Source: Poseidonia sp. (GTDB lineage Archaea; Thermoplasmatota; Poseidoniia; Poseidoniales; Poseidoniaceae). Taken from it: a stretch of 64,000 nt of DNA. The translations under genes and the position numbers were made by a program. Position 1 is the stretch's first letter, and each line of letters opens with the position of its first letter. Shown one piece after another: positions 2,953 to 54,538 of the stretch. The notes below the pieces were generated by a model. The model worked only from the letters and a program-made list of their open reading frames with translations. It made no database searches and was not told the DNA's origin. The stretch lies in the NCBI GenBank assembly GCA_016779705.1, contig JADHNB010000001.1, positions 1,434 to 65,433 on the forward strand. The letters are read 5' to 3'.

Positions 2953-3034
2953 GGTGGCAACCGACGGTTTTCCCTCCGAAAAAGCCCCTCTGGACATGGT
3001 GAAGGGTTCAAAACGATGACGCCGTCCGGATATC

Positions 3035-3991: not shown

Positions 3992-3997
3992 ACCACC

Positions 3998-6900
3998 ATG
4001 TCTCCGAAGGATGAACTGGAGCGGATGGCTCGGGAGCGGATGCTCATCATCGACGGTGCCATGGGTACCATGATTCAGCAGCATCGCTTGCAAGAAGAAG
4101 ACTTTCGTGACGCGCGCTTAAAGGACCATTCCATCGACCTGAAAGGCAACAACGAGATGCTCAACATCACCCAACCCCATCTCATCGAAACCATCCATAC
4201 GCAATACCTCCAGGCTGGCGCCGACATCATCGAAACAAACACGTTCGGTGCCACCAGCATTGCTCAATCGGAATACGGCTTGAGCGACCGTGTGGTTGAG
4301 ATGAACGAGCGAGCGGCGAACATTGCAAAGGAAGCTGTACGCAAACATCAGGAAAAAACGGGCAAGCGTTGTTGGGTGGCGGGAGCCATTGGTCCGACCA
4401 ACGTCACGCTTTCGGCCTCTTCGGATGTGGAAGATCCCGCTGCTCGAGCGGCGACTTGGGATGAGGTGTACCACGCCTATCTTGAACAACTGCTCGCCCT
4501 CATCGATGGCGGCTGTGACATCATCCTCATCGAGACGATTTTTGACGTCCTTAACGCCAAAGCCGCCATCAAGGCAACCCTGGATGCCTTTGAGTTGAAA
4601 CAGGTTGAATTGCCCATCATCATCTCGGTGACGTTCATTCAAGAAGAAGGGGACCGGACCGTCTTTGGACAGAGCGTTGAAGCCTTTTGGACCACGGTCA
4701 AGCATGCACAACCGTTCAGTGTTGGCATCAATTGCGGATTGGGAGCCACCGGCTTGAGAAGCAAGTTATCCACTCTCGCCAACATCTGCGACACCCGGAC
4801 CCACATCTATCCAAACGCAGGATTACCCAATCCCCTCTCTCCCTCGGGATTTGATGAAACGCCCCACATCACCGCCGCCCACATCACCTCGCTGGTTCGA
4901 GACGGCTTGCTCAATCTCGTAGGGGGATGTTGCGGCACCACCCCCGAACACATCCAAGCCATCCACGATTCGGTTCAAGGATTGCCTCCTCGTGTCCCGG
5001 GCCAACCAAGTGAGGTTCCGACCTACGCCGGTTTGGATGTTTGCAGCGTTCTTCCCGACTCCAACCTCATCATGGTTGGGGAGCGAACCAACGTCACGGG
5101 TTCGGCTCAATTTCGCAGGCTCGTTACGGCGTTGGACTTTGAAAACGCCGTGGAAGTCGCACGGGACCAAGTGCAAAACGGCGCCAACATCATCGATGTC
5201 AACATGGACGAGGGCTTGATCGAAAGCGAAGCGGTCATGACCCGTTTCCTCAACATGATCGCCACCGAGCCCGAAATTGCCTCGGTTCCCGTCATGATCG
5301 ATTCCTCAAAATGGAGCGTGCTCGAGGCTGGGCTCAAGTGCGTTCAAGGCAAGCCCATTGTCAACTCCATCTCCCTCAAAGAAGGCGAAGCGGTTTTCCT
5401 CGAGCAGGCGAAGACGATTCATCGCTACGGTGCGGCCGTGGTCGTGATGGGGTTTGACGAGACCGGTCAGGCCGAAAGCGTGGAACGGAAAGTGGAAATC
5501 GCCCTCAGGGCTCAACGTCTCCTGGTTGAACAGGTGGGTTTTCACCCCTCCGACATCATCCATGACCCCAACGTCCTCGCCGTCGCCACGGGCATGGGGG
5601 AGCACGATAACTTCGCAAAAAACTACATTGAGGCCACGAAGATCATCCGAGAAACGTGTCCACAATCAATGGTCAGCGGCGGCATCAGCAACCTCTCCTT
5701 TTCCTTTCGGGGTAACGAAACGGTTCGCCAAGCCATGCATGCCGTCTTCTTGCATCACGCCATCGGCGCAGGTCTCACGATGGGCATCGTGAATCCTTCC
5801 CATCTGACCATCTACGAGGACATTGAAGATGCCTTGTTGGAGATGGTTGAGGACGTGATTCTCAACCGCCGCCCCGATGCAACGGAACGCTTGGTGTCGA
5901 TGGCGGACCGTTTTTCAACACAACGGAGCCTTCAGGAAGATGCAAAGGAATGGAGAGAACACGACGTCGCCAAACGATTGGCCCATGCCTTGATTCACGG
6001 CATCACCGAATACATCGAGCAGGATGTCGCTGAAGCCTACGACGACGTTGGTGATGCCTTGAGCATCATTGAGGGCCCGCTCATGGACGGGATGAACATC
6101 GTTGGAGAGTTGTTTGGTTCGGGCAAAATGTTTCTTCCCCAAGTCGTCAAAAGTGCCCGAGTGATGAAGAAAGCCGTTGCATGGTTGGAACCCCACATGC
6201 ATCAGGCTGAAACCGAGCAGAAAAAACGAGCCGAAGTCGTGCTTGCAACCGTCAAGGGAGACGTGCATGACATTGGAAAAAACATCGTGGGGATCGTGCT
6301 GCAATGCAACGACTACGCCGTCCATGACCTTGGCGTCATGGTGCCGCTGTCCACCATTTTGGACAAGGTCGAAGAGGTGCAGGCCGATGTTCTCGGCCTG
6401 TCCGGCCTCATCACGCCCTCCCTTGATGAAATGATTGAAGTGGCCAAGGAAATGCAACGAAGGGGCATGACCATCCCGTTGTTGATCGGTGGCGCCACCA
6501 CCTCGCGCCAGCACACGGCGGTGAGAATCAACCCCGCCTACGGAGCAGAGGTGGTGCACGTGAAGGACGCCTCGCTCATTTCAGGGGTGCTCAATCAATT
6601 GCTGGATGAAGAAAAGCGGTTGGAATTCAGAAAGACACTCGACGAGGAAAACCAACGATTGACGGCGCTGTACGAGCGAAAAATCAACCAGCCCTTACTC
6701 ACGTTGGAAAAAGCACGACAACGAAAACCGGATTTCGAGTTTAACGAACAGACGTGCTCCAAGCCCCCGTTCACCGGTGTGAGAGCGTACTCGCTCAGCC
6801 TTGAAGCGGTCGAGCCGTACATTGACTGGAACTTCTTTTTCACCGCTTGGAACATGAAAGGCACCTACCCCGCCATCCTTGCCCATCCCGAAAAAGGCGA

Positions 6901-7642
6901 AGCGGCGAGGGATGTGTTTGAAAACGGGAAGAAGATGCTGGCGGAGGTCATGCACAACCGGTCGCTTTACATCAAGGCCATCGCTGGTTTTTGGCCAGCT
7001 CATTCAGAAGGCGATGATGTTGTGATTCAAGGCGAGGAAGAGCACCGATTTGCCTTCTTGAGGCAACAACGGAGTGTGGGAGAACGGAACCTTTGCCTCG
7101 CCGACTTTGTGGCCCCCAGCGACGAGATTCAAGATCATGTGGGCGCCTTTGCCGTCGCCGTTCACGGAACCGAGGCGCTCGCACACGCCTTTGAAGCCGA
7201 GCAAGACGATTACAACGCCATCATGATCAAAGCAATCTCAGACCGACTTGCTGAAGCAAGCGCCGAAAAATTGCATCAAATGGTCCGAGCAGAATGGGGC
7301 TTCCCCGATGGTGAAGACATGACGCATGAACGCTTGATGAAGGCCGATTACCGCTCCATCCGCCCGGCCTTTGGATACCCCGCTTGTCCCGACCACAGCG
7401 ACAAACGCTCGCTTTTTGCGCTCTTGGACGCTGAAACGCACGGGTTCCAACTCACCGAGTCCTGTGCTACATCACCCGCTTCAAGCGTGTCAGGGTTGTA
7501 CTTTGGCCATCCCGAAGCCACCTATTTCGGCGTCAATCGAATCGACGAAGGCCAGGTGATGGATTTGGCGCAACGCAAACGAATTCCCCGAAGGGAAGTC
7601 GAGTATTGGCTCGCCTCCATCATTGATTACGACCCAAACTGA
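3998..7642 (+). CDS. metH: Cobalamin-dependent methionine synthase, full length four-module enzyme (1214 aa).
   Basis: Hcy-binding, pterin-binding, B12-binding ([20 protein letters not shown]) and AdoMet-activation regions in canonical order. Length is typical for MetH. Confidence 0.9.
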
Positions 7643-7654
7643 CCGGATTCCCAA

Positions 7655-7669
7655 CGAGAGCGGTGCTCT
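7655..7669. terminator. Perfect hairpin GAGAGC-GGT-GCTCTC between convergent metH and crtB; candidate bidirectional terminator.
   Basis: 6-bp inverted repeat with 3-nt loop read directly; followed by a T-containing stretch. Confidence 0.3.
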
Positions 7670-7679
7670 CTGTGCTTGT

Positions 7680-8672
7680 TCAAGCGAAATAGCGGGCTCG
7701 CAACTTTCGCAGGCTGAGCCGCACACCAAACAGCAGTTTCCGCCACGACGACAAGGTCACCGGCTGACTGAACACGTCGCCCGAGCGGCGTACGATTTCG
7801 TTCAAAATGGAAGCATAAGCGTCGGCCATGATCTCCGGTTGAACCCGTGCTCGTGCGTCGAGGTAACCGAACAGGTGGCTGGCCGAGGCCTGATGGCGCT
7901 TGACGACGTCCATGTATTCAACGATGAAGCCACGCCAGGCGAGGGATTGAGCGACGTTCCCACCCTTGAGCATCTCAAGGCTGATGTTGTGAGAGGCCAG
8001 CACCTCTTGCGGGAGATAGATGCGCCCCCGCTCCATGTCCTCGTTGATGTCACGAAGCACGTTGATGAGTTGCATTTGGATGCCGAGGTCGATGGCGTGA
8101 AGGCGAGCGGCGCGGTCTTCGTAGCCGTAGATCTCAATGAGGATCAGGCCAACGGCAGAGGCGACCTTGTAGCAATAGGAGCGCAGTTCGTCCCACGTTT
8201 GGTTTTGGACGGGGTAGAGGTCGTCTTCCATGCCTTCGATGACCGTTTCAAAGTCGTTGAGTTTGATGGGGTAACGAGCGAACACGTCTTGGAGAGCGAT
8301 GAAGATGGGATGGTCGTTGGCCGTGATGGTTTGGTCAAAGGCTTGCCCGATTTTCATTCGGATTTCGGTGAGGGCCATCAAGCGGCGACGGTGCTCTTCC
8401 GGGGGGAGAACCGGCACTTTTCCGGCGTGAATCTCGTCAACCAAACGCTGTCGTTGATTCGTGGCCACCCGAAGCGCTTCCGTTTCGGTCACGTTGGGTT
8501 CTTCGTCGCCATCAACGATGTCATCCACCCATCGACACAAGGCATAGACGGCATGAACGGCTTTCCGTTTCTCGAGTTGAAGGGCGCTAAACGACGAGTA
8601 GAACGTGGTTGAGGCCTCTCGGCACACCGCTTCACAATAGTCGTAAGCGTTGGCGAGGAGAAGCGACTTCAT
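7680..8672 (-). CDS. crtB: Phytoene/squalene synthase family (phytoene synthase).
   Basis: Trans-isoprenyl diphosphate synthase head-to-head motifs (YCYKVASAVGLI, RDINEDMERGRIYLPQEV, Asp-rich VDDIVDGDEE). Start moved to the internal Met so it does not overlap crtI. Confidence 0.8.
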   Translation of the reverse strand: MKSLLLANAYDYCEAVCREASTTFYSSFSALQLEKRKAVHAVYALCRWVDDIVDGDEEPNVTETEALRVATNQRQRLVDEIHAGKVPVLPPEEHRRRLMALTEIRMKIGQAFDQTITANDHPIFIALQDVFARYPIKLNDFETVIEGMEDDLYPVQNQTWDELRSYCYKVASAVGLILIEIYGYEDRAARLHAIDLGIQMQLINVLRDINEDMERGRIYLPQEVLASHNISLEMLKGGNVAQSLAWRGFIVEYMDVVKRHQASASHLFGYLDARARVQPEIMADAYASILNEIVRRSGDVFSQPVTLSSWRKLLFGVRLSLRKLRARYFA

Positions 8673-8683
8673 GGCGGGACACC

Positions 8684-10297
8684 TCAGGCAGATGTTGGGG
8701 TTCCGCTGGAGGGTTCTTTTGAGGTTTTGTTGACCGCCGCACGGCCTTGCTTGGACCGCTTTCGGCTTTCGAACCACGTGTCAACCCCGTTCCAATCCGG
8801 GATGATGCCCAAACTGTCCAACAAGAGTTTGCTGCTGATGCGTGCCGACTCGTAGATGACCGGCAAACCGCTGCCGGGGTGGGTGCCGCCGCCGACGAGG
8901 TAGAGGTTGTTGATCTCGTCAAACTGGTTCTTTGGTCGTCGCCACAGCATCTGGTCGAGGCCGTGGGCGAGGTTGAAGACGGCACCGCGGTAGCAGTGGT
9001 CGCCCCAATCCTCGGGGGTGATGATCATCTCCGTCACGATGTGGTCACGGATGTTTTCGAAGCCCAGTTTGGATTCGATTTGGTCCAAGATTCGGTCTCG
9101 ATAGGCGTCCTTTTCTTTGGACCAGTCAATGTTCTCGTGGACGTGGGACACCGGGACGAGGGCGTAAACGGTTGAGCACCCTTCTGGGGCGAGTTGCGGG
9201 TCGGTCACGCATGCATTCTGGACGTAGACCGACGGGTCGTCCCAGGTGATTTGGTGGTGTTTTTCGATGTCTTCGAGGTTTTTCTCGTAGGTGGCGGACG
9301 CGTAAATTTGGTGGTGTGGCAGGTGGTCGTAGGTGCGGTCAACGCCGAGGTAAAGCATGAACGTTGAACAGGAATACTTCTTCTTGTCCAGCTTCTTGTT
9401 GTTCCACTTCTTTCGAACGTTATCGGGGAAGAGTTGGGTCATGCCGTTAGCGAAATCAGCGTTCATGATGACGCGGTCGGCGAAAAATTCCCCTTCTTTG
9501 GTCCGCAAGCCTTTGATGGTCTTGCCCTCCATGATGACCGATTCCACGGCTTCGTTCATGCGGAAGGTGACGCCCAACTCCTTGGCGATGCTCGCCATTT
9601 TTTCGCTCACGCTGCCCAAACCACCCATGGGGTGGAAGATGCCGTATTCGTACTCAAGGAACGCCAGCATGGTGAACAAACTGGGGCAGTTGAACGGCGA
9701 CATGCCGAGGTACTTCGTCTGGAAGGACATGGCCAACATCAACCGGTCGTCATCAAAGAGTTTCATCAAATCGCCCGCCACCGAGCGCTGTGGACGCAAC
9801 ACACCGGCCACGCGCATGGCTCGCTTCGAGAGAAGGTCGCTTGGTCCGTACCACGGTTCTTGCAAGCATGCCTTGGATTTCTCGAGTTTGATCCGGTTGT
9901 CGACCACATAGCGTCGGAAAGCATCGGCGTTTTTTGGGCCGGACAACGCACCGATACGCTCGGTCATTTCGTCGAGGTCGCTGGTGCAATCCAATTGGCC
10001 ACCTTGACCGAAGATGAGGCGGTAGTTCATGTCCAGTTTGTGGAGGTTCAACGCCTCGTGAGCGTCGTGGCCAACCGCTTTGAAGATGTCTTCAATCACT
10101 TCGGGGTAGTGGAAAAAGGTGGGCCCAAGGTCAAACTTGAAGCCGTCTCGGTCGAACACTTTGTTGCGCCCACCCACCGCTGAGGAGCGTTCGAAAACGG
10201 TTACTTGAACGCCGGCTTTGGCGAGGAGAAGGGCTGAGGCGAGACCACCGGGGCCTGCTCCGATGATGGCGACGGACGGTGCAGTGCTGCTGGGCAT
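8684..10297 (-). CDS. crtI: Phytoene desaturase family FAD-dependent oxidoreductase
   Basis: N-terminal FAD dinucleotide-binding fold VAIIGAGPGGLASALLLAKAGVQVTVFERSSAVGGR. Size about 535 aa. Immediately upstream of crtB. Start chosen at the Met about 27 nt downstream of a TATA box. Confidence 0.8.
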   Translation of the reverse strand: MPSSTAPSVAIIGAGPGGLASALLLAKAGVQVTVFERSSAVGGRNKVFDRDGFKFDLGPTFFHYPEVIEDIFKAVGHDAHEALNLHKLDMNYRLIFGQGGQLDCTSDLDEMTERIGALSGPKNADAFRRYVVDNRIKLEKSKACLQEPWYGPSDLLSKRAMRVAGVLRPQRSVAGDLMKLFDDDRLMLAMSFQTKYLGMSPFNCPSLFTMLAFLEYEYGIFHPMGGLGSVSEKMASIAKELGVTFRMNEAVESVIMEGKTIKGLRTKEGEFFADRVIMNADFANGMTQLFPDNVRKKWNNKKLDKKKYSCSTFMLYLGVDRTYDHLPHHQIYASATYEKNLEDIEKHHQITWDDPSVYVQNACVTDPQLAPEGCSTVYALVPVSHVHENIDWSKEKDAYRDRILDQIESKLGFENIRDHIVTEMIITPEDWGDHCYRGAVFNLAHGLDQMLWRRPKNQFDEINNLYLVGGGTHPGSGLPVIYESARISSKLLLDSLGIIPDWNGVDTWFESRKRSKQGRAAVNKTSKEPSSGTPTSA

Positions 10298-10318
10298 GCT
10301 TCGCATGGGAGGTCAAGA

Positions 10319-10330
10319 GCATATAAAGGG
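10319..10330 (-). promoter_or_regulatory. TATA-box-like element (ATATAAA) about 25-30 nt upstream of the crtI start; candidate archaeal promoter for crtI-crtB.
   Basis: Sequence ATATAAAGGGGGG read directly. The adjacent oligo-T/A run (10333-10360) could serve as a terminator for upstream ubiB. Confidence 0.3.
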
Positions 10331-10372
10331 GGGTTTTTGTCCTAAAAAAAACTGAAAAAATAACAGTGGAAC

Positions 10373-11605
10373 TCACCCGTTGATGATGGCGTGGGGGTCA
10401 ATGAGAACCGAGAATTCATCCAAATACGGTCCCATGGAACTGATCAAATCCACCTCAGGATGACCCTTGAGGACCATCCCGTCCATGTACATGAGCGAGC
10501 GGATGATGGGAAAGGCCTCTTCACCAAAGGCGCAACCGGCCAGCACGGCGGCCTTCACCGTCTTCATCATCTGTTCCGTCAGCGAGACTTCGCTGACCGA
10601 GGTACCGACAAAACCGTCGTACAGTTCGTTCATCGAATCGTAGTACGTTTGAAGGGTTTTTCCGGTGGGTCGCACCGCCGCCATGGTCAGCATGGCGTCG
10701 AAGGCGTTCCGCAATTCGCCCTTGGCCAGGAAATAAAAGAAACCAAACAAGGCGTTGCGCACGTGCTCGGGTGCGTGGCAAATAGCGCCGGTATCAATGA
10801 AATAGAAGTCTCCGGACTCATCCATCATGGCGTTGCCGGGGTGCAAGTCACCGTGGAAGGTGCCAAGGCCGAACATGAACGCGCCGTGAATTCGGAACAA
10901 CTCGAGCATGTCCGTCCAAGCCATCGTGCCCGATTCGAGGTGGTCTTCAAGTGTGGGCGCCGTAATCTCCTCCATCACGAGAACGTGTTCATTGGACAAC
11001 GCCTCCCACATCTTGGGGAAACGGAGCTTGGGCATGGGGAAATGGGCTTCCACCTCAACGGCTTTGGCCATGAGGTCGTTTCGGCCCACGATTTCGTTGG
11101 TCAGGTTGAGTTCGCGCAACGTGTAGTCTTCGATGTGAGCCAACAAACCGATGGGGTTGCCCACCTTCCGAAGTCGAGGATTGAAAAACAACCCTATGCG
11201 AATCCACCGCTTCATGCGTCGTACATCACGACGAAACGACGCTTCAAAATCGGCTTTGATGATCTTGACGACCACCTTTGTGCCGTCCTTGAGAACCGCT
11301 CGGTGGATTTGCCCAATGCTTGCCGCAGCGAACGGCTTGGGTTCAATCGATTGGAAGTGGTCGGCGAATCCTTCGGGGGCAAAACGGTCCAAGAGCGCCT
11401 GAGAGTTCTCTTCGGGAATGGTGGCTGCACGGCTGTACAACCGTTGGAGTTCAATGCAACGTTCGGGCTCGATCAAGTCGGGTCGAAGAGCAAAGATTTG
11501 CCCCAACTTCACCGCCAACAATCCCATCGATTGAATCGCATCGATGTTCACCGGTTTCTTCCCTTTGAGTTGGCGAAAGAAACGGATGAAGGTCAGCAAC
11601 TTCAT
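10373..11605 (-). CDS. ubiB: ABC1/UbiB family atypical kinase
   Basis: ABC1 domain motifs LGQIFALRPDLIPE, AAASIGQIHRAVLKDGTKVVVKI, HGDLHPGN. Confidence 0.8.
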   Translation of the reverse strand: MKLLTFIRFFRQLKGKKPVNIDAIQSMGLLAVKLGQIFALRPDLIEPERCIELQRLYSRAATIPEENSQALLDRFAPEGFADHFQSIEPKPFAAASIGQIHRAVLKDGTKVVVKIIKADFEASFRRDVRRMKRWIRIGLFFNPRLRKVGNPIGLLAHIEDYTLRELNLTNEIVGRNDLMAKAVEVEAHFPMPKLRFPKMWEALSNEHVLVMEEITAPTLEDHLESGTMAWTDMLELFRIHGAFMFGLGTFHGDLHPGNAMMDESGDFYFIDTGAICHAPEHVRNALFGFFYFLAKGELRNAFDAMLTMAAVRPTGKTLQTYYDSMNELYDGFVGTSVSEVSLTEQMMKTVKAAVLAGCAFGEEAFPIIRSLMYMDGMVLKGHPEVDLISSMGPYLDEFSVLIDPHAIING

Positions 11606-11618
11606 GCCGGTCACGTCC

Positions 11619-13019
11619 TCAATCGTTGAGTTCAATGGTGTTCATTTCATGCCGGTGAATGAGGTAACGCCACAGGTCGTCGTTGGTGCCGCTGCCTTCG
11701 ACCCGTTGAATCACGACGTTGGCGTCCTTCGCAAATCTCGTTGACAAGGCCCCTTCGATGATGCCGTCGTCCATCTGCCACATGGGCAGGGCGTCGGGGT
11801 CGTCTACCGGCGGGTGATTGAGGCCGACGACCACCTGAAATTGGGGGTCGACGTCGTATTGCAACATGCCCAGGCCAGCGTGTTCCCACCAGTCCATCAT
11901 CTCTTCAAGGAATTCAATATCGTGTTCTATAGAACGCAAGGAAAAGGCGATTTCCTGGCCAACACGATTACCGATTTGGCGCAACATTCGACCGATATCG
12001 ATGCCCAACACCTTGAGGTTGGACAACTTTCCTTCGGTCAGTCGCATTCGGGCTTCGTTCACTTCTTTGCCAGCGGCGAAGAAGGCCTCAGGGTCAAACG
12101 GCGTGTCTTCCTCGGGGAATTCTCCGTCAAAGCCGAGGGCAACGGAGACGTTCTTCAGGAACGAACCTTCGCCGATGGTCAATCGGAGCGGGTCGTTGAT
12201 TTGGTTCTCCGTAAAGCGAGCCCGAGCGGTGTCCAACGATACGGCTCCCTCCCAAATCGCATCGATGAGGTGGAGGTGAGCTTGCGAGAACGGTCCCGAC
12301 TCGATGATGAGGGCGGCGTCCTCTTTTCCACGGCCCACCGGATTGTCTTCGATGTTGAGGTATTGAATCACTTCCGACTGGTCTTGGACAAAACCCAACG
12401 AATCGAGTTCATCGGAGTGTCGCACCTCAATGCTGGAGTCGAGTTGGTCAAAGAAGCGAAGGGTACGACCGTCCAGGTGGGTGATGATCTGAACCACGAC
12501 GCCGCGCACGGCGGCGGTGTTCACCGCTTCGAGGGCTTCGGGGTTGCGGCACAGATGCAAGATGCCGAACTGGCCCAACAGGAGAATGAGCCGCTCTTCG
12601 GCTTCGTTGGCCATTTTCTGCAGACGGTTGTAGATATGAGACCGCTCCTTCAACACGGCGAAACGAGGGTCGTCGATGTCCCGTCGTTGTTTCTCGTAGG
12701 AAGCGTCGGTTTCCGTGATGCCTTTGGACAGGTCTTCGAACCCTTCAACGAGCCGGTCAAGTTGTTGCTTGCGGGATTGAATGATATGTTCCATGGCCTC
12801 GTTGATTCGAAGGCTTGAGAAGAGCATCGGTCGGTCGGCCGTGGCGGTCACAATGCCCATTTCTTGGAGGCGAGAAAGGCTGTTGTAGGCGTCGAGTCGG
12901 GTCGTGTTCAATTCCTTGGCCAATTCAGAGGCTTTCATTTTCGGGCGCGAGCCCAGAATCATGATCGAGCGAACCTCACGTTCGTTGAGGCCAGCCTCAA
13001 GGAGCAGTTCGTCCCACAT
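11619..13019 (-). CDS. TrmB-family transcriptional regulator, long form (466 aa).
   Basis: N-terminal winged HTH resembling TrmB (ILGSRPKMKASELAKELNTTRLDAYNSLSRLQEMGIV) followed by a large C-terminal domain. Start codon overlaps the bcp stop by 1 nt (ATGA). Confidence 0.65.
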   Translation of the reverse strand: MWDELLLEAGLNEREVRSIMILGSRPKMKASELAKELNTTRLDAYNSLSRLQEMGIVTATADRPMLFSSLRINEAMEHIIQSRKQQLDRLVEGFEDLSKGITETDASYEKQRRDIDDPRFAVLKERSHIYNRLQKMANEAEERLILLLGQFGILHLCRNPEALEAVNTAAVRGVVVQIITHLDGRTLRFFDQLDSSIEVRHSDELDSLGFVQDQSEVIQYLNIEDNPVGRGKEDAALIIESGPFSQAHLHLIDAIWEGAVSLDTARARFTENQINDPLRLTIGEGSFLKNVSVALGFDGEFPEEDTPFDPEAFFAAGKEVNEARMRLTEGKLSNLKVLGIDIGRMLRQIGNRVGQEIAFSLRSIEHDIEFLEEMMDWWEHAGLGMLQYDVDPQFQVVVGLNHPPVDDPDALPMWQMDDGIIEGALSTRFAKDANVVIQRVEGSGTNDDLWRYLIHRHEMNTIELND

Positions 13020-13486
13020 CAGGCATCCCCCGTGACGCTGGAGATGTCTGAAAGAATCCGAGCGACATGGCGCCGTGGACGGAACAGCCAGTCATAGACG
13101 TAGCGAATGGTGTTGTCTGGGCCGATGAGGAAGGAGGACTTGGCTGGGAATTGGCCGACATGCATGGGGACGTTGAATTGCTGGCCAACCACGCGTTCAG
13201 GGTCGGCGAGCAGGGGGAACGGCAGGTCGCCCAAGGTCGCCTTGAACGAGGCGAGGCCTTCAGCTGACCCGGGACCGATGCCCACGATGGAGCAACCGGC
13301 GGAAGCGAACAGGTCGTGTTGTTCTTTGAACGTCAAACACCCGCGCTTGCAGGTGGGTGAGCCGTGTCTTGAATAAAAGAAGATGATGCGCCAGGTGCCG
13401 TGCAGCGTTTTGCTGTCAAACACGGCTCCTTGGTCATCCTGGAGCATGAAATCCGGAGCTTTTTGTCCGACGAGGTTGGCTTTCAT
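13019..13486 (-). CDS. bcp: Peroxiredoxin, Bcp/AhpC-TSA family
   Basis: GQKAPDF...FFYSRHGSPTCKRGC..FPLLADPERVV, the typical Bcp thioredoxin-fold signature with peroxidatic Cys in the xPxC context. Start taken at the internal Met (MKANLVGQKAPDF). Confidence 0.8.
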   Translation of the reverse strand: MKANLVGQKAPDFMLQDDQGAVFDSKTLHGTWRIIFFYSRHGSPTCKRGCLTFKEQHDLFASAGCSIVGIGPGSAEGLASFKATLGDLPFPLLADPERVVGQQFNVPMHVGQFPAKSSFLIGPDNTIRYVYDWLFRPRRHVARILSDISSVTGDA

Positions 13487-13496
13487 GGGGGTGGCC

Positions 13497-14108
13497 TCAG
13501 ACGGGAAGGATGTGGCCCATGCGGGAGGCTTTGGTCGACATGTAGGACCGGTTGTGCGAGCATTGGCCCACGATGATGGGCACTCGGTTGGCGACCCCAA
13601 TCCCGTTGTCAATGAGTTGCTGACGCTTGTCAGGATTGTTGGTCACGAGTTCGACTTGATTGACCCCCATCGCGTACAACATCTCGGCGGCGAAGTCGTA
13701 TCGTCGGGCGTCGCCAGGTAGGCCGAGCGCGAGATTGGCGTCCAAGGTGTCCAAACCGTCGTCTTGGAGGGCGTAGGCCTGCATTTTGGCGAAGAGGCCG
13801 ATGCCACGGCCTTCTTGCCGGAGGTACACAACGGCGCCGTGTCCGGATTCCTGGATGGCCTTGAGCGAGGCGTCGAGTTGTGGCCCGCAATCACAGCGTT
13901 GAGAGCCGAAAGCGTCGCCGGTGAGGCATTCAGAGTGGAGGCGAACGAGCGGCGTGCCCTGAGAAAGATCGCCCACGTAGACGATGCAGTGTTCCTTGCC
14001 GTTGTTGGGGTCCCGGAATGCACGGATGCGGAATTCGCCGTGTTTAGTGGGCAAAACCGCATCGGCTTCTGGAGCTTGTGTGATGGTTGGTTGTGGGGCT
14101 CCTAGCAT
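13497..14108 (-). CDS. ribA: GTP cyclohydrolase II (bacterial-type RibA)
   Basis: RLHSECLTGDAFGSQRCDCGPQLDASL and YLRQEGRGIGL match the GCH-II zinc-binding and catalytic motifs. Start taken at the Met 26 nt downstream of the TATA box. Confidence 0.8.
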   Translation of the reverse strand: MLGAPQPTITQAPEADAVLPTKHGEFRIRAFRDPNNGKEHCIVYVGDLSQGTPLVRLHSECLTGDAFGSQRCDCGPQLDASLKAIQESGHGAVVYLRQEGRGIGLFAKMQAYALQDDGLDTLDANLALGLPGDARRYDFAAEMLYAMGVNQVELVTNNPDKRQQLIDNGIGVANRVPIIVGQCSHNRSYMSTKASRMGHILPV

Positions 14109-14127
14109 GTTAGAAAATTTGCTCAAT

Positions 14128-14188
14128 TTGTATATAAACACTCGTCTTTTTCCTTTGCTGGGTTGAAACCGTTCTTGATATACTCATC
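14128..14188. promoter_or_regulatory. Divergent promoter region with two TATA-like boxes: TTTGTATATAAAC serving ribA (minus) and CTTGATATACT serving nudix (plus). Both are about 24-26 nt from leaderless start codons.
   Basis: AT-rich 60-nt island in a 60% GC background, read directly. Spacing is consistent with archaeal TATA-to-TSS distances. Confidence 0.35.
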
Positions 14189-14204
14189 CGTTGAAAAAAT
14201 AACG

Positions 14205-14696
14205 ATGTCCCAACTGCTCTGCGACCTCGGCGTGGCTACCCGAGTGGTTCGGGACGGCCACATTCTCCTCGTCCAAGAAGCCAAGGGGCGCCATGCAGGC
14301 CGATGGGGCCTGCCCAAGGGCAACGTTGACGACAACGAGAGTCCCGAGAACGCCGCCCTACGAGAGCTTCGAGAAGAAACGGGCTTGGAAGGGCAACTGG
14401 TGGGATTGGCCGGCGTACGGACGGCGTTGCAAAGCAACGGCCCTGCCGTATTCCTGTGTTACGAAGCCACGGTGACCGATGACCAGCTCCAAACCGACGG
14501 CGACGAAATTGCCTCAGCCAGGTGGTTTTCGCTGGACGGGTTGAAGTCTCTTGAGTGGGTTTCTGAAACGATGCATCAACTCGCCGTTGACGGCTTTTGC
14601 CGGTCGACCGTCCTGGTCAACCAACGGGGCTTGACGCCCCGAACCAACCCGTATGCGGTGTACCGTGCCGCTGGTGCCCACGGTAGGGGGCGGTGA
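14205..14696 (+). CDS. NUDIX hydrolase
   Basis: Nudix box GRWGLPKGNVDDNESPENAALRELREETGL (GX5EX7REUXEEXGU). Confidence 0.75.
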   Translation: MSQLLCDLGVATRVVRDGHILLVQEAKGRHAGRWGLPKGNVDDNESPENAALRELREETGLEGQLVGLAGVRTALQSNGPAVFLCYEATVTDDQLQTDGDEIASARWFSLDGLKSLEWVSETMHQLAVDGFCRSTVLVNQRGLTPRTNPYAVYRAAGAHGRGR

Positions 14697-16246
14697 GACC
14701 CATGATTCCCCCTGCCCGCCTCCAAATTCACGGCGAAACCAACCCGGAAGGCGAGGTGGTTGTGTACTGGATGACGGCCGCCCGTCGCCCGTACTGGAAC
14801 CACGCCTTGCAGCATGCCATTGACCTCGCCAAGGAACACCACCTTCCGTTGGTGGTGATCGAGTGCTTGGCCCTCCACCACCGCTGGGCCAACGACCGCA
14901 TTTCCACCTTCGTGCTTCAAGGCATGGTGGACAACCGGGAGAGTTTTGCCAATTCAGGCGTGACCTACATCCCCTACGCTGAAACCAAGCGAAAGGAGGC
15001 TTCCGGGCTGCTTCAAGGCTGGCTCAAAAACGCCCGAGCCTGTGTGATCGATGACTACCCGACCTATTACCCAAAGCACGTCCTCAACACGGCGATCACC
15101 GTCAAGCCGTGTGAAGTTCACGTGGTGGACTCCAACGGATTCATGGCCATGAGGGCCCAAGGTCGGGACTTCTCAACGGCCTACTCGCTTCGTCGGCACC
15201 TCCACAAAACCATCCGCGAACACATGCACGAATTTCCAGAAGCGAAACCGTTGGCCAACGCCGCCGGCCTGCCGTGTGTGGATGCCTCGTTGGTGCAACG
15301 GGTTTTTGACGAAACCAACACCCCCATGACCCCGTATGAGTTTATTTGGCGCGTCGCTGAAGGTGGCGACGTGGGCCTTCAAGCCCTCTCGACGCTCAGC
15401 ATTGACCACGATGTGCCGCCGGTGGTCGGCAAACGAGGAGGCCATCTCGAAGGCCGACGCCGTTGGAAGGAGTTCTTCTCGAACCGGTTGGCCTTGTATC
15501 ACGAAAAGCGTAACGAACCGCAAGAGCGTGGCGCAAGCGGGTTGTCACCGTGGCTGCATTTTGGCCATTTGAGCGTCCACAACATCCTCCACGAAATCTT
15601 TGCCCATCACGGTTGGGACGTGAGTCTGGTCAATGCCCCCAACGACGGCCGCCGACAAGGTTGGTGGGGGTTGCCTGAACCGGTCGAAGCCTTCCTCGAC
15701 CAAATCATCACGTGGCGTGATATCGGCTTTATCCACTGCGCCATGATCGAGAACCACACCGATTACGAATCCTTGCCGGCTTGGGCCATCACCACGCTGG
15801 GCGAGCACGAGAACGACGAACGGCCCTACCTCTACACCTTCGAGGAATTTGAAAACGCCCAAACTCACGACCCGTTGTGGAACGCTGCCCAACTCCAACT
15901 TCGACAAGAAGGCATTATTCACAATTACCTCCGCATGCTGTGGGGCAAGAAAATCCTCGAATGGACGCCAAATGCCGAAATCGCCATGGAATGGATGATC
16001 GCCCTCAACGACCGATGGGCATTGGACGGTCGGGACCCCAACTCCTACACCGGCATCGGTTGGGTGCTCGGCAAGTTTGACCGAGGCTGGACCGAACGGG
16101 CGGTCTACGGGAAAATCCGTTGCATGACAAGTGACTCAACGGCTCGAAAATTCAAAACCAAAGGCTACGTTGCAAAATACACCAGCGGCACATCCCAGGC
16201 CGCGTTGCTCGGCTCGGGACCCAACTTCTACTCAACCCACCAGTGA
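14693..16246 (+). CDS. phr: Deoxyribodipyrimidine photolyase, class II CPD photolyase type
   Basis: Class II signatures GLSPWLHFGHLS, LWNAAQLQLRQEGIIHNYLRMLWGKKILEW, LDGRDPNSYTGIGWVLGKFDRGWTERAVYGKIR. GTG start overlapping the nudix stop. Confidence 0.85.
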   Translation: MRPMIPPARLQIHGETNPEGEVVVYWMTAARRPYWNHALQHAIDLAKEHHLPLVVIECLALHHRWANDRISTFVLQGMVDNRESFANSGVTYIPYAETKRKEASGLLQGWLKNARACVIDDYPTYYPKHVLNTAITVKPCEVHVVDSNGFMAMRAQGRDFSTAYSLRRHLHKTIREHMHEFPEAKPLANAAGLPCVDASLVQRVFDETNTPMTPYEFIWRVAEGGDVGLQALSTLSIDHDVPPVVGKRGGHLEGRRRWKEFFSNRLALYHEKRNEPQERGASGLSPWLHFGHLSVHNILHEIFAHHGWDVSLVNAPNDGRRQGWWGLPEPVEAFLDQIITWRDIGFIHCAMIENHTDYESLPAWAITTLGEHENDERPYLYTFEEFENAQTHDPLWNAAQLQLRQEGIIHNYLRMLWGKKILEWTPNAEIAMEWMIALNDRWALDGRDPNSYTGIGWVLGKFDRGWTERAVYGKIRCMTSDSTARKFKTKGYVAKYTSGTSQAALLGSGPNFYSTHQ

Positions 16247-16255
16247 GGAACCTCC

Positions 16256-17650
16256 ATGCCCGTCTACCAACACACCGCCCGTTTTGACGTCCCCGTTGAC
16301 CGACTTTGGTCGTGGTACGACAGTTCGGGGGCGTTTCGACGCATCATGCCGGAATGGGAAGGCATCGAGCCGGTCGAAGCCGGTAAATTGGTTGATGGCG
16401 AGCAAACGCGTTTCAAAATCCGTCTTGGCCCTCTGCGCCCCATGTGGGTGGCTCGCCATCACGGTGTTCAATCCGGCGAGGTCTTCAACGACGTCATGGA
16501 AAAAGGGCCGTTTGGGGCATGGGACCACGAACATCGGTTTGTGCCCGTTACCACCACGACGTGCGAATTGGTTGACACCGTCAATTGGCGGCTTCCTTTC
16601 CATCCGCTGACGTTTTGGACCGCACCAATCACCGTGAAAGGTCGCTTGAATCAGATGTTTGCCTATCGAACCGCACGGGTGGAAAGCGATTTGAACCGCA
16701 TCATGAAAACGGCTCACCTCCCTCGCCAGCGTATCCTCATCAGCGGTTCCACCGGGCTCATCGGTATGCAATTGTGCGCCTATCTTGCCGCCGCCGGTCA
16801 TCACATCACGCGGCTGGTACGTCCGACCACCGTGCTTCCCTCGGACGCCCAAGGGGACGATACCGTGGTTTGGAACGACCGGACGGGCGAAATCATCAGC
16901 GGGGACTTGAACGGCTTTGACACCGTCATCCATCTGGCCGGAGCCGGCATCGGGGACCGCCGTTGGAACGCCAAACGCAAAGACGAGATCGTTTCCAGTC
17001 GGACCGTTCCCACAGCAAACTTGGTTGCGAAGTTGGTGTCCCTCGACCGGCCTCCAAAGGCGTTTTTGTGCGGTTCAGCCATCGGATTTTATGGCAATCG
17101 TGGTGACGAACGGCTCGACGAGGCCTCGGCACCGGGGACCAATTTCCTCGCGGAAACCTGCGTTGCGTGGGAGGCCGCCGCTCAACCCGCCCTTGACGCA
17201 GGGATTCGGACCGTGTTTATGCGGACCGGCATCGTGACCACGCCCATGGGAGGTGCGCTTCAGAAGCTGCTGCTGCCAAGCAAGTTTGGAGCCGGTGGTC
17301 CGGCTGGAGGAGGGAAGCAATTCTATTCGTGGATTTCGTTGGCCGACCAGGTCTACGCCATCGACCACCTGATGATGACGGAAACCTGCGAGGGCGTGTA
17401 CAACCTGACGGCCCCCGAGCCCGTCACGCAAAAGGTGTACGCCAAAACCTTGGGCCGCGTGTTGCGCCGTCCAGCCTTCGCACCGGCTCCCGGCTTCGCT
17501 CTCCGTTTGTTGCTCGGAGAGATGGCCCAAGCTTTGGTGTTGGACGGCCAGCGAGTTCTCCCCCGCCGTCTCTTGGAGAGCGGATATGAATTCGAACACG
17601 CGGACTTGGAAACCTGCCTGCGCCAATGTCTAGGTCGACAACGGGTCTGA
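16256..17650 (+). CDS. Fusion protein: N-terminal SRPBCC (START/polyketide-cyclase-like) domain plus C-terminal NAD-dependent epimerase/dehydratase (YfcH/SDR39U1-like, DUF1731).
   Basis: SRPBCC-like N-terminus (MPVYQHTARFDVPVDRLWSWY...). Rossmann ILISGSTGLIGMQLCAYLAAAGHHITRLVR and a YfcH-like C-terminus. Confidence 0.6.
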   Translation: MPVYQHTARFDVPVDRLWSWYDSSGAFRRIMPEWEGIEPVEAGKLVDGEQTRFKIRLGPLRPMWVARHHGVQSGEVFNDVMEKGPFGAWDHEHRFVPVTTTTCELVDTVNWRLPFHPLTFWTAPITVKGRLNQMFAYRTARVESDLNRIMKTAHLPRQRILISGSTGLIGMQLCAYLAAAGHHITRLVRPTTVLPSDAQGDDTVVWNDRTGEIISGDLNGFDTVIHLAGAGIGDRRWNAKRKDEIVSSRTVPTANLVAKLVSLDRPPKAFLCGSAIGFYGNRGDERLDEASAPGTNFLAETCVAWEAAAQPALDAGIRTVFMRTGIVTTPMGGALQKLLLPSKFGAGGPAGGGKQFYSWISLADQVYAIDHLMMTETCEGVYNLTAPEPVTQKVYAKTLGRVLRRPAFAPAPGFALRLLLGEMAQALVLDGQRVLPRRLLESGYEFEHADLETCLRQCLGRQRV

Positions 17651-17707: not shown

Positions 17708-20224
17708 ATGCGTCGCGCGGTGCTGCTGGGCCTCATCGCGTCGCTTCTCCTTATCCATCTCCCCAGTTCAGCCGCTGACAACACCCCCACCAGCGCCAAC
17801 GGTTTGACCGACGGTGTTTCTTCAAACGGCTATGTTTGCGACCCCGACGGCTGTTCGCCCAACGACAAAACGGACTATTGGAAAATTCAAGGCAAGCGAG
17901 GGGACATCGTTCGCGTTTCGTTCTCCGGCAGCATGAGCAACCCCGCCTGGTGGTGTCCTGGTGACGGTTGGATCGGGACCTTCACCATGGGCAGCGTGAC
18001 CTCCAACGTCGACGACGGTAACCCCTCCGCCCAGTTGTCAACCACGTTGGCCACGGCCGGCGAGGTTCTCATCAAGGTCGAGGCAGCGGATTCGTGGTGC
18101 AACGACGGGTTTGACTACACGCTCACGCCGGCCATTGACAAAACCAACCGTGACACCGACGAAGACGGGTTCATCGACACGGAAGATGACTGTGTTTTCT
18201 TGGTCGGGACCTCCACCAACGACCGAAACGGTTGCACCGATTCCGACGGCGATGGATGGTCGGACCCTGACAGCGGCTGGGGCGTTCAAAACGGCGCAGA
18301 TGCCTTTGCAAGTGAATCCTCACAATGGTTAGACTCCGACAACGACGGTTACGGTGACAACATCGAAGGGTTCCAAGGCGACCACTGCACGTACAGTCGT
18401 GGGTATTCCGATGCTGACCGCTTTGGATGCCTTGATACGGACGGCGACGGATACTCCGACCCCGACCCCGGTGGCTTGAACGGGTTTGTGCCGTGGTACG
18501 CTCATCCCGTGGGGGCGGCGGACGCCTTCTCCTTCGATAACTCGCAGTGGAACGACACGGACGAAGACGGCTACGGCGATAATTGGGCCGACCCCTCCAT
18601 CAATCAAACCCGATGGTTGTGGGGCATCGGCCAATTTGTGGACAACGCCACCAAACCCGACGCTTGCCCCTTTGTGCGTGGCGGTTCCTCTGCTGACCGC
18701 TTTGGGTGTGTGGACACGGACGGCGATTCGTATTCGGACGGTGACGAAAACTGGACGGTGAACAACGGCTCGGATGCGTTTCCCGTCGAGCCGACCCAAT
18801 GGCTTGATTCTGACCGTGACGGGTGGGGCGATAACCAAAGCGTTGGGGCGCAACTGATTGACGATTTCCCGTACAACCCCACCCAATGGCGGGACACCGA
18901 TGGAGACGGCTGGGGCGATAACCAAACCTACGGTGCCACCCAGATCGATGATTTCCCGTTCGTGCCTTCCCAATATCGGGACACCGATGGTGATGGGTAT
19001 GGCGATAATTTGACGGGGTTCGAGGGCGATGTTTGCCCTCAATCCACGCCTGAAGAGGTGGACTCCGGTTGGATCAGCCGTTACGATCGGTTGGGATGCC
19101 GTGACGTGGACAGCGACGGGTATTCCGACCCCACCGAGTTTTGGAACGCTCATCCTGACGGCTTTGCCGATGCCTTCCCGAACGACCCGTCCCAATGGCA
19201 CGACACCGACGATGATGGCTACGGCGACAACGCCGAATACTTCGACGGCCAAACTTGGCGAGCCTCCTACCGACCGGACGGCTGCCGCACCACGCCTGGC
19301 AATTCCACCTTTGACCGATGGGGCTGTCCCGACGGTGACGGCGACGGTTGGTCCGACCCCACGGCCTCGTGGTTGGCCAGTCCTGGTGGTAGCGGTGATG
19401 CGTGGCCTGAGGACCCAACGCAGTGGCACGACAGCGACGGGGACGGCCGAGGCGACAATCCACGCGGCACCACGGCGGACGTCTGTCCCGAGGTGGCCGG
19501 GACCTCCGTTGGACCTTCCTCGGGCGGGGACCGGTGGGGCTGCAAAGACACCGATGGGGACGGCTGGTCCGACCTTGGCGATGCGTTCATCCACGAACCG
19601 ACTCAATGGCGGGACTCCGACGGTGACGGCTACGGCGACCGCATGGAAGGTCACCAAGGCGATGCCTGTCCAGAGACTCGTGGCACCTCGTTGCTGGACC
19701 GACTCGGTTGTCGAGACACGGACGGCGACGGTTGGTCCGACCCAACGCCTGCTTGGCCCGCTCATCCGTTCGGGGCGGCCGATGCGTTCCCCACCGAAGC
19801 CTTGCAGTGGATGGACAGCGACCAAGACGGCTTCGGTGACCTTCCCCTTGGGGCGTTGCGAGACGACTGTCCCGAGGTTGCGGGGACGTCGACCCGAGAT
19901 GTTCAGGGCTGTCCCGATGGCAATCAAGACGGTTGGTCCGATGCGTACGGCGAATTGGCGGCGGCCATCGCCATCATGGGCGAAGACCCCGCCGCCTCAT
20001 GGCTCACCTACGCCGTCATCGGCGGCGGCTTCCTGTTGGGAGCCCTTGCCGCCTTGGTCGTGCGTGCATCACGACAACGGTCGCAGTTGATGGAACAACT
20101 CGTCGCCGACAAGGACCTGGAACTGATGATGGGGAACAACGAGCCTTCGGCGACCCCCCGATTGATTCCGTTGGACGAACTTCCGCCGTTGCCAGGCATG
20201 CCAGGGGGTGAAGAAGGTGCGTGA
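17708..20224 (+). CDS. Cell-surface protein (838 aa) with signal peptide, N-terminal beta-sandwich domain, about 11 thrombospondin-type-3-like Ca-binding repeats and a C-terminal TM anchor.
   Basis: Signal peptide MRRAVLLGLIASLLLIHLPSSAA. A reiterated unit about 60-70 aa long: CP..GTS..DRxGCxDTDGDGWSDP...AFP.DPTQWxDSDGDGYGDN. TM WLTYAVIGGGFLLGALAALVV plus charged tail. Confidence 0.7.
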   Translation: MRRAVLLGLIASLLLIHLPSSAADNTPTSANGLTDGVSSNGYVCDPDGCSPNDKTDYWKIQGKRGDIVRVSFSGSMSNPAWWCPGDGWIGTFTMGSVTSNVDDGNPSAQLSTTLATAGEVLIKVEAADSWCNDGFDYTLTPAIDKTNRDTDEDGFIDTEDDCVFLVGTSTNDRNGCTDSDGDGWSDPDSGWGVQNGADAFASESSQWLDSDNDGYGDNIEGFQGDHCTYSRGYSDADRFGCLDTDGDGYSDPDPGGLNGFVPWYAHPVGAADAFSFDNSQWNDTDEDGYGDNWADPSINQTRWLWGIGQFVDNATKPDACPFVRGGSSADRFGCVDTDGDSYSDGDENWTVNNGSDAFPVEPTQWLDSDRDGWGDNQSVGAQLIDDFPYNPTQWRDTDGDGWGDNQTYGATQIDDFPFVPSQYRDTDGDGYGDNLTGFEGDVCPQSTPEEVDSGWISRYDRLGCRDVDSDGYSDPTEFWNAHPDGFADAFPNDPSQWHDTDDDGYGDNAEYFDGQTWRASYRPDGCRTTPGNSTFDRWGCPDGDGDGWSDPTASWLASPGGSGDAWPEDPTQWHDSDGDGRGDNPRGTTADVCPEVAGTSVGPSSGGDRWGCKDTDGDGWSDLGDAFIHEPTQWRDSDGDGYGDRMEGHQGDACPETRGTSLLDRLGCRDTDGDGWSDPTPAWPAHPFGAADAFPTEALQWMDSDQDGFGDLPLGALRDDCPEVAGTSTRDVQGCPDGNQDGWSDAYGELAAAIAIMGEDPAASWLTYAVIGGGFLLGALAALVVRASRQRSQLMEQLVADKDLELMMGNNEPSATPRLIPLDELPPLPGMPGGEEGA

Positions 20225-23073: not shown

Positions 23074-23121
23074 ACGCCTGAATCAACAATGATTTTCAAG
23101 GTCGGAGGCTGTGAGGCGTCC

Positions 23122-53448: not shown

Positions 53449-53481
53449 AGCGACGCCCCAACCCCTCAAACAGGTGCTTGC

Positions 53482-54527: not shown

Positions 54528-54538
54528 GAGGGACCACC

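Follow-up and report, generated by a model that had tools for sequence, protein, structure and literature searches.

A conserved nine-gene cluster of Poseidoniales that joins photolyase, carotenoid and antioxidant genes to a common promoter element and an embedded TrmB-V4R-like regulator

Nine adjacent genes, encoding a photolyase, carotenoid-type enzymes, a peroxiredoxin, a flavin-pathway enzyme and a TrmB-family regulator, are found between positions 7680 and 17650 of a 64,000-nucleotide stretch of Poseidonia sp. DNA (GenBank assembly GCA_016779705.1, contig JADHNB010000001.1, positions 1,434 to 65,433 of the forward strand; this whole stretch is referred to below as the window). The cluster as such, and the promoter signature GG-N4-RAAC-N5-TATA that its transcription units have in common, are strongly supported by comparison of related loci. 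We propose, with about as much confidence as doubt, that the cluster constitutes a conserved Poseidoniales supra-operon directed against sunlight damage, that it is expressed from a single type of promoter, and that the embedded regulator, here called TrmB-V4R, is the likeliest candidate for its dedicated control. Control by this protein, with light as the signal, is a reasonable hypothesis; from the sequences we infer the co-regulation of the units, the link between the regulator and the element, activation rather than repression, and the nature of the signal.

Poseidoniales are among the most abundant archaea of sunlit ocean water. We know of no cultured member, nor of any account of light sensing or survival in the order that does not rely on inference from gene lists alone. 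Published surveys mention photolyase, rhodopsin and crt genes in Marine Group II archaea, and full-text literature searches returned no account of the cluster, its promoter type or the TrmB-V4R subfamily of regulators. The cluster offers a compact, testable unit, i.e., three or four promoters with a specific signature together with a candidate regulator, and it would be among the few predicted regulons of uncultured archaea for which cis elements are defined.

A scan of one genome per GTDB species yielded 289 stretches encoding relatives of the regulator, and gene order was compared in the best 80 of these, each with 10 kb flanks and with a regulator identity of 71-96%. The close homologues of the regulator reside in sequences labelled Poseidonia or Candidatus Poseidoniales (Marine Group II). 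The nine genes, i.e., ribA, bcp, trmBV4R, abc1, crtI and crtB on the minus strand and nudix, phr and yfcH on the plus strand, are colinear and in the same orientation in all 62 loci that are long enough to hold them, and crtB follows crtI in each of these complete loci. When truncated loci are counted, colinearity is found in 79 of 80; the exception is locus L072, which lacks nudix. The contigs that carry the cluster in L028 and L072 were deposited as bacterial metagenome-assembled genomes (MAGs; Verrucomicrobiales bacterium and Salinimicrobium sp., respectively), probably as a result of binning errors.

The surroundings of the cluster are less constant. On the crtB side, the window harbors genes for a methylenetetrahydrofolate reductase (MTHFR) and a cobalamin-dependent methionine synthase (metH, 1214 amino acids (aa)) at 3035-7642, which are absent from all 80 loci, even those with a regulator that is 96% identical; such a flank is peculiar to this genome, and the cluster ends right after crtB. 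On the other side, a large Asp-rich repeat protein adjoins the cluster in 45 of the 80 loci; in the window, this is an 838-aa protein (17708-20224, plus strand) with DTDGDGY/W.D repeats and no Pfam match. Colinearity of nine genes while the flanks vary indicates more than chance.

The original prediction of a divergent photoprotection island is sustained with respect to gene order, which is colinear across the Poseidoniaceae and rearranged in more distant relatives, but with the members still adjacent. In L081 (regulator identity 65%), there is an extra small open reading frame (ORF), genes for thioredoxin-like and ABA4-like proteins are found after crtI, crtB is inverted, and a gene for a nickel superoxide dismutase (Ni-SOD) together with that for its peptidase adjoins the cluster. 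In L083 (56%), crtB is found at the far end, beside the epimerase-fusion gene yfcH and behind an aldehyde dehydrogenase gene. In L090, abc1 has been lost and a ybgA-like gene gained; in L091, crtI is followed by ABA4-like, crtB and ybgA-like genes; and in L072, a ybgA-like gene (2-thiouracil desulfurase and DUF1722 domains) is inserted between phr and the epimerase fusion. In E. coli, ybgA is part of one operon with the photolyase gene phr. The ybgA-like, thioredoxin-like, ABA4-like and Ni-SOD genes of these other lineages strengthen the photo-oxidative theme.

Because the members remain together after rearrangement and related genes have been recruited, selection appears to act on their proximity and not merely to preserve an inherited order. 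The alternative, i.e., that the arrangement is inherited synteny of three unrelated units without functional coupling, gains some credit from the narrow origin of the 80 colinear loci, which come from a single family-level group and have regulator identities of 71-96%. We nevertheless consider it very improbable, because the flanks have been replaced while the nine genes stay, because members are adjacent after rearrangement and have been joined by related genes, and because the units have a promoter signature in common.

The nine genes appear to be organized in three leaderless transcription units, ribA-bcp-trmBV4R-abc1, nudix-phr-yfcH and crtI-crtB, and in four or five units in some genera. 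The minus-strand genes had been predicted to form one operon, a claim that must be revised to two transcription units because a separate TATA box and T-tracts are located between abc1 and crtI. The tracts (10344-10360, minus strand; T6 at 10360-10355 and T8 at 10351-10344) directly follow the abc1 stop codon and are kept in Poseidonia-level loci. They probably constitute an oligo-T terminator; this assignment is made by analogy with archaeal oligo-T terminators.

The crtI promoter (10320-10342, minus strand) is composed of GG at 10342-10341, AAAC at 10336-10333 and a TATA box, TTTATATG, at 10327-10320, and is kept in 77 loci. The ribA promoter (14131-14153, minus strand) has GG at 14153-14152, AGAC at 14147-14144 and the TATA box TTTATATA at 14138-14131 (kept in 63 loci), and the nudix promoter (14160-14182, plus strand) has GG at 14160-14161, AAAC at 14166-14169 and the TATA box TTGATATA at 14175-14182 (kept in 53 loci). 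The ribA and nudix TATA boxes each begin 30 nucleotides (nt) ahead of the ATG, that of crtI begins 29-30 nt ahead of it in orthologues, and the spacing is 29-32 nt across all cluster units of the related loci, as is expected of leaderless archaeal transcripts. The TATA box at 10327-10320 places the true start of crtI at the second ATG, position 10297 (MPSSTAPS). In a simple scan of the 64 kb, a canonical TATA box combined with an ORF at leaderless distance was found at these three sites only.

The AT-rich divergent promoter region described in the original prediction is readily recognized: the spacer between ribA and nudix (14109-14204) has a GC content of 33%, compared to 58% for the window, and this spacer and the region upstream of crtI are the two lowest-GC 60-nt stretches of the 64 kb. 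In other loci, a separate promoter of the cluster type is often found ahead of abc1 (about 29 weight-matrix matches of at least 18 bits precede an abc1-sized ORF; the matrix is described below). Ahead of ribA, no flavin mononucleotide (FMN) or other riboswitch was found; an Rfam scan of the whole window gave two tRNAs only.

Promoters of ribA, crtI, nudix and, where present, abc1 were aligned on their TATA boxes (50-72 distinct sequences each), which yielded the consensus GG-N4-AAAC-N5-TTtATATa. Relative to the start of the TATA box, GG is found at -15/-14 and AAAC (more generally RAAC) at -9 to -6. A position weight matrix (PWM) trained on the cluster promoters themselves gave, within the window, 34.8 bits for the crtI promoter (the best site), 31.0 for that of ribA and 30.5 for that of nudix; the next best site reached 10.8 bits, and the maximum over 20 shuffles was 17.4. 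A shared motif had been anticipated upstream of 14141 and 10306, and GG-N4-RAAC-N5-TATA is indeed found at both, as well as ahead of nudix, and nowhere else in the window. The promoter of ribB in the window, for example, has a TATA-like box 29 nt before the ATG that scores 6.9 bits and departs from the cluster motif.

Over related loci totalling about 1.8 Mb, the matrix gave 243 matches of at least 18 bits, nearly all of them ahead of cluster genes. Matches also precede genes outside the training set, namely the relocated crtB of L083 and L091 and the ybgA-like gene of L091 (23.6 bits); the ybgA-like genes of L072 and L090 score 15.4 and 16.6 bits, i.e., under the 18-bit threshold. Upstream of ribA in the GC-rich, distant locus L085, the same layout is seen, GAAC-N5-TTCATAAG, with the ATG 30 nt downstream. 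In the divergent region of the window, the two copies of the element (14144-14153 and 14160-14169) face each other at a distance of six base pairs (bp) and so define a 52-bp control region with overall dyad symmetry.

The GG-N4-RAAC element could be an activator's operator, a basal element of unusual type or a site recognized by a paralogous transcription factor B (TFB). The second and third of these options amount to a different explanation of the cluster promoters, in which the element is a basal feature (a strong or unusual combination of TFB-recognition element (BRE) and TATA box, or a site for paralogous TFB or TATA-binding protein) and the TrmB-V4R protein regulates elsewhere or fine-tunes its own operon. 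RAAC is located at about -41 to -36 from the ATG, where it overlaps or abuts the canonical BRE position, the element is non-palindromic, no dyad between TATA box and ATG is conserved across genera, and a gene for transcription factor IIB is among those that Thalassarchaeaceae transcribe at high levels (PMC9723583). Against this explanation, the tRNA promoters of the same genomes (those of tRNA-Phe and tRNA-Gln in the window and of tRNA-Asn in nine loci) use GGAAG, located two to three nt nearer the TATA box, as exemplified by the generic control promoter of tRNA-Asn, GATGGAAGCCG-TCATATAG. Furthermore, flanking genes in the window and in the approximately 1.8 Mb of related loci are devoid of the element, while newly recruited cluster genes carry it. 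On balance, we find it doubtful that the element is merely basal. The tRNA-Asn gene itself resides on the yfcH side of the cluster in the nine loci (L050, L055, L056, L058, L059, L066, L070, L073 and L076, at about 2350-5360), and in six of these it lies directly beyond the end of the epimerase-fusion gene.

A palindrome of the TrmB type (TACT-N-AGTA or TGM) did not stand out in any of the promoters when 50-77 loci per promoter were inspected by eye, without a pattern search; the non-palindromic GG-N4-RAAC was the sole element kept across genera. A TrmB-style operator located between the TATA boxes, or between TATA box and ATG, was also considered and rejected, because inspection by eye revealed genus-specific elements only, none of which is kept across the order. 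These are ACAAA-N10-TTTGT at ribA in Poseidonia, GTGAAAA at four to twelve nt before the ATG of crtI and ribA in one genus group (that of L054-L071), CACGTGAT at the same place ahead of crtI in another genus group, and GTGA/CACGTG elements close to some crtI start sites. GTGAAAA and CACGTGAT, neither of which is seen in the genus of the window, could be operators or initiators particular to those genera.

The candidate regulator is encoded within the ribA unit (11619-13019, minus strand, 466 aa), and its ATG overlaps the bcp stop codon, as had been noted earlier; ORF coordinates and upstream sequence show that one base is common to both (TGATG at 13017-13021). Its assignment to the TrmB family holds for the N-terminal part. 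A TrmB-type winged helix-turn-helix (PF01978) is found at residues 8-68 with 33.7 bits, compared to a gathering cutoff of 25.6, and in a predicted model the N-terminal 270 residues form a winged helix, a long helix and a lobe similar to phospholipase D (PLD), as in TrmBL2 and TrmB. A Foldseek search with this model retrieved 5bpd (TrmBL2, E 1e-13), 3qph (TrmB, E 4e-10) and 2f5t (E 5e-6), as well as the PLD folds of NucT and Zucchini. A second AlphaFold2 model, based on a 43-sequence alignment, has a mean confidence (pLDDT) of 83, and of about 90 over residues 120-270.

The protein is not a plain TrmB, however, because a V4R-like domain is fused to this part. The C-terminal third matches the MsvR model NF053755 (E 5e-8, 32.8 bits compared to a cutoff of 220) at model positions 119-228 of 236, a segment that we take to be the V4R part of MsvR. 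A profile of the C-terminal part matches PDB chain 2osd ("Hypothetical protein MJ1460", E 4e-4, positions 353-453), which is presumably a V4R protein, and homologues are named "TrmB / predicted hydrocarbon binding protein" by JGI. Pfam returned no family for the C-terminal fragment at E values up to 1, and in the Foldseek search with the whole model the structural matches for the C-terminal domain were swamped by the N-terminal ones. No match to the sugar-binding C-terminal domain of TrmB was reported; residues 300-460 resemble V4R-type proteins instead. The regulator is not classified as MsvR because the score is far under the NF053755 cutoff. Judged by these profile and fold matches, it is a TrmB-V4R-like fusion, neither a sugar-sensing TrmB nor an MsvR.

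Among the Poseidoniales proteins, no cysteine is conserved in residues 300-466, and C157 in the middle domain is the only nearly invariant cysteine of the cluster regulator. Several conserved V4R cysteines are found in a paralogous branch with 32-38% identity (P0124, P0128 and P0129). The paralogue genes (L086 10001-11389, L087 1735-3114 and L088 10001-11368) are located between a large upstream gene, which encodes a TPR protein in L086 and L088, and a HesB/IscA-type Fe-S assembly gene; in L086, genes for an FMN reductase and an ArsC-family protein are found nearby. The cysteine-rich paralogue is possibly a redox or Fe-S sensor.

In the proposed model, TrmB-V4R would bind GG-N4-RAAC just upstream of a weak BRE and act as an activator by helping to recruit TFB and TATA-binding protein; a small ligand, either hydrophobic or similar to flavin, would set its activity by binding to the cysteine-free V4R-like domain, and the protein would also control its own synthesis. 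In its strongest form, the model would have TrmB-V4R represent an uncharacterized class of sensor-activators that read a light-dependent small molecule and drive a dedicated sunlight regulon via GG-N4-RAAC. This molecule could be a photoproduct of flavin or deazaflavin, or else an intermediate of the carotenoid or prenyl pathways. We regard this strong form as speculative and unlikely.

Several observations weigh against a sunlight regulon under the control of TrmB-V4R. As regards the promoters, the shared element is found at the expected BRE position and is not a palindrome of the type bound by a TrmB dimer; the control set of generic promoters is small (about 12 sites, mostly tRNA); the specificity of the PWM is in part a circular result, from which the accessory genes and the match-free flanks are exempt; and the Ni-SOD gene of L081 has no obvious copy of the motif upstream. 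As regards the regulator, a relative with 43% identity keeps only ribA-bcp-regulator, with neither photolyase nor crt genes, and the location of the cysteine-rich paralogues beside Fe-S genes points to redox, not light, as the ancestral signal. From these two neighborhoods it follows that the regulator family would have been associated first with genes of flavin and redox functions, and the arms for photolyase and carotenoids would then be either gains in sunlit lineages or losses in others. Finally, the supplement of PMC9723583 was considered as a source of direct expression evidence and set aside, because the dark-depleted crtD reported there is found at another locus and the cluster is dispersed in that MAG, with only ubiB, crtB and crtI together.

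The last points on the regulator lead to an explanation in which the cluster is a redox or oxidative-stress regulon with an MsvR-like sensor of redox or flavin state, built on a core of ribA and bcp to which photolyase and crt genes were added later. It is supported by the homology of the V4R region to that of MsvR, by ribA and bcp being the most deeply conserved neighbors of the regulator, by the paralogues with V4R cysteines beside Fe-S genes and near the FMN reductase and ArsC-family genes of L086, and by the thioredoxin-like and Ni-SOD genes that join the cluster in some lineages. Yet the cluster's own regulator has lost the V4R cysteines and retains only C157 as a nearly invariant one, photolyase needs light, and its ybgA-like partner has been recruited repeatedly. 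In addition, photolyase is reported to track rhodopsin and to be absent from deep-water lineages of Marine Group II (PMC6461757, PMC10480650). We consider a redox regulon a real possibility, if a rather tentative one.

ORFs of the region were scanned against Pfam and NCBIfam, which confirmed the gene identities proposed originally, at the location proposed and with refined coordinates. The count did not hold: ten genes, two of them for Nudix enzymes, had been claimed, while the region harbors nine, with one Nudix gene. In the ribA unit (minus strand), ribA (13497-14108) encodes a monofunctional GTP cyclohydrolase II (PF00925 E 6e-61; TIGR00505 and NF001591 above their cutoffs), bcp (13019-13486, 155 aa) a bcp/PrxQ-type peroxiredoxin (PF00578 AhpC-TSA, 84.5 bits) whose translation carries a CKRGC cysteine pair, and abc1 (10373-11605) an ABC1/UbiB atypical kinase (PF03109 ABC1 E 1e-36) that starts with MKLLTF, an N-terminus consistent with orthologues. 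In the adjacent unit (minus strand), crtI (8684-10297) encodes a phytoene desaturase of the crtI family (TIGR02734 crtI_fam, 491.5 bits compared to a cutoff of 238.1) and crtB (7680-8672, 330 aa, starting with MKSLLL) a crtB-like squalene/phytoene synthase (PF00494 SQS_PSY, E 3e-64, 217 bits, above cutoff). The latter scores 92-147 bits with the NCBIfam CrtB models (cutoffs 480-550) and 203 bits with HpnD (cutoff 279), and because these equivalog cutoffs are missed, its product type is left at the superfamily level; by its family match it is a member of the SQS_PSY superfamily, and its product could be of the C40, C30 or squalene type. Long ORFs opposite crtB and abc1 (7623-8612 and 10391-11629, plus strand) are presumably mirror ORFs of the real genes, because the minus-strand frames, the only ones given to Pfam, match families.

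On the plus strand, nudix (14205-14696) encodes a Nudix hydrolase (PF00293 E 1e-23) that reaches no NCBIfam equivalog cutoff. Scanning of the window ORFs revealed just one further Nudix domain, in a 504-aa Nudix/metallo-beta-lactamase fusion (45389-46903, minus strand), 28 kb from the cluster, which may be the second Nudix of the original prediction. The phr gene (14693-16246) encodes a protein of the class II cyclobutane pyrimidine dimer (CPD) photolyase family (TIGR00591 phr2, E 9e-100); with this model, which is of the "superfamily" type, residues 20-496 align to positions 21-453 of 453 and score 335 bits, compared to a curated cutoff of 550, and the DNA_photolyase and FAD_binding_7 matches are weak. 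The last gene, yfcH (16256-17650), had been described as an SRPBCC/epimerase fusion. The NAD-dependent epimerase-family part is well founded (TIGR01777 (yfcH) 306 bits compared to a cutoff of 207; DUF1731 E 7e-21), while the SRPBCC-like N-terminus is a weak assignment (Polyketide_cyc E 0.0096, 16.6 bits, below the cutoff of 23.4, when residues 1-155 were scanned alone); Polyketide_cyc is on record for the orthologues in L083 and L090.

Taken together, these products would act on sunlight damage at several levels. The class II photolyase would repair cyclobutane dimers, the peroxiredoxin would clear peroxides and CrtB and CrtI would produce a carotenoid. For the ABC1 kinase, the SRPBCC-epimerase fusion and the Nudix enzyme, we propose a role in prenyl-lipid or cofactor metabolism; in plastids and cyanobacteria, ABC1 kinases are tied to the homeostasis of prenyl lipids at high light. 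To call the Nudix protein a "sanitizing" enzyme is guesswork; it could just as well act in flavin nucleotide metabolism.

The pathways to flavins and to the deazaflavin FO have a first committed step in common, which RibA catalyzes. Flavin adenine dinucleotide (FAD) is the cofactor of photolyase and of CrtI, and FO (8-hydroxy-5-deazaflavin, 8-HDF) is the antenna of archaeal class II photolyases. RibA may thereby open the pathway that delivers FAD to photolyase and CrtI and, probably, the 8-HDF antenna to photolyase, and with ribA behind a cluster promoter, the provision of cofactors would be coupled to repair and to the synthesis of pigment. In the window, ribA is found 38 kb from the other rib genes, i.e., ribB, a cytidylyltransferase-like gene (which we assume may encode the archaeal FAD synthetase RibL) and riboflavin synthase (Lum_binding), at 52720-54527, a separation consistent with the first pathway step being controlled on its own. 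Here, the initial reaction of flavin synthesis is detached from the rib operon and tied to photolyase. The riboflavin-operon-like stretch as a whole (52720-54928) is composed of ribB (3,4-dihydroxy-2-butanone 4-phosphate (DHBP) synthase), the cytidylyltransferase-like gene, riboflavin synthase and a 129-aa ORF, and has no ribA. In a Thalassarchaeaceae MAG, dark incubation depleted transcripts of the FO synthase (cofH), of UV repair and of a crtD (PMC9723583).

The crt genes could also be explained in terms of light harvesting, i.e., by supply of a retinal precursor for proteorhodopsin, which would make the cluster a support module for photoheterotrophy. Rhodopsins are found in Marine Group II archaea, whereas blh homologues are not, so that these archaea have no known route to retinal (PMC7734400); Damashek et al. 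read crtI/crtD as retinal-synthesis genes. One possibility is that the SRPBCC-epimerase and ABC1 kinase genes and, in some lineages, the ABA4-like and aldehyde dehydrogenase genes belong to the retinal route of rhodopsin-bearing archaea that lack blh, and if these genes act on carotenoids, the cluster would bear on how such archaea obtain retinal. Against this explanation, a tblastn search with one proteorhodopsin sequence as query revealed nothing similar to rhodopsin, either in the window or, up to 10 kb from the cluster, in any of 91 loci. Nor did the cluster proteins that were scanned, or for which Pfam matches are on record, yield any lycopene cyclase or carotenoid-cleaving oxygenase family. 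The crt genes are found in the company of repair and antioxidant genes, which favors protection, and we consider a role in retinal supply quite unlikely.

Elsewhere in the window, a 2168-aa protein with FG-GAP repeats is encoded at 23089-29595 (plus strand), and a 381-aa protein with a response-regulator receiver domain at 60088-61233 (plus strand), preceded by genes for a ThiF/rhodanese protein and a pyridine nucleotide-disulfide oxidoreductase.

Among characterized regulators, TrmB, TrmBL1 and TrmBL2 of Thermococcales and TrmB of Halobacterium are built from the same winged helix (PF01978), long helix and PLD-like domain as the cluster protein. As known from TrmBL1, members of this family can act as activators from a site upstream of BRE/TATA and as repressors from a site downstream of it. 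Unlike these proteins, the cluster regulator has no detected sugar-binding C-terminal subdomain but a V4R-like domain, the cluster promoters have no evident TACT/AGTA or TGM palindrome, and the neighboring genes are not those of sugar metabolism. With MsvR, the V4R redox regulator of methanogens, the cluster protein has in common a homologous V4R-like domain and a gene located with presumed oxidative-stress targets. It differs from MsvR in its TrmB-type DNA-binding domain, in the absence of V4R cysteines, in its low score with the MsvR model and in gene arrangement: the gene of the cluster regulator is embedded in an operon, whereas msvR is transcribed divergently from its target operon.

LitR/CarH of Thermus, Bacillus, Streptomyces and Pseudomonas and sigmaE-ChrR of Rhodobacter control bacterial light-induced photolyase/carotenoid regulons. 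The logic of their gene content is the same as that seen here, i.e., photolyase, crtB/crtI, cofactor supply and antioxidants are combined with one dedicated regulator, and the ybgA-like gene beside phr in relatives of the cluster recalls the ybgA-phr operon of E. coli. There are differences: no MerR/B12 photoreceptor is encoded among the nine cluster genes or the neighbors examined, no pair of extracytoplasmic function (ECF) sigma and anti-sigma factors was detected within the cluster, its promoters are of the archaeal, leaderless type, and its regulator comes from an unrelated family. CrtR of Corynebacterium, a sensor of isoprenoid pyrophosphates from the MarR family that is encoded beside crt genes (PMC5401885), offers a plausible model of a V4R ("hydrocarbon-binding") sensor; CrtR is a divergently encoded repressor, and the cluster regulator belongs to another protein family. 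By analogy with these systems, the cluster resembles the bacterial light and photo-oxidative regulons in kind, while it appears to be built from archaeal leaderless promoters and a regulator of uncharacterized architecture.

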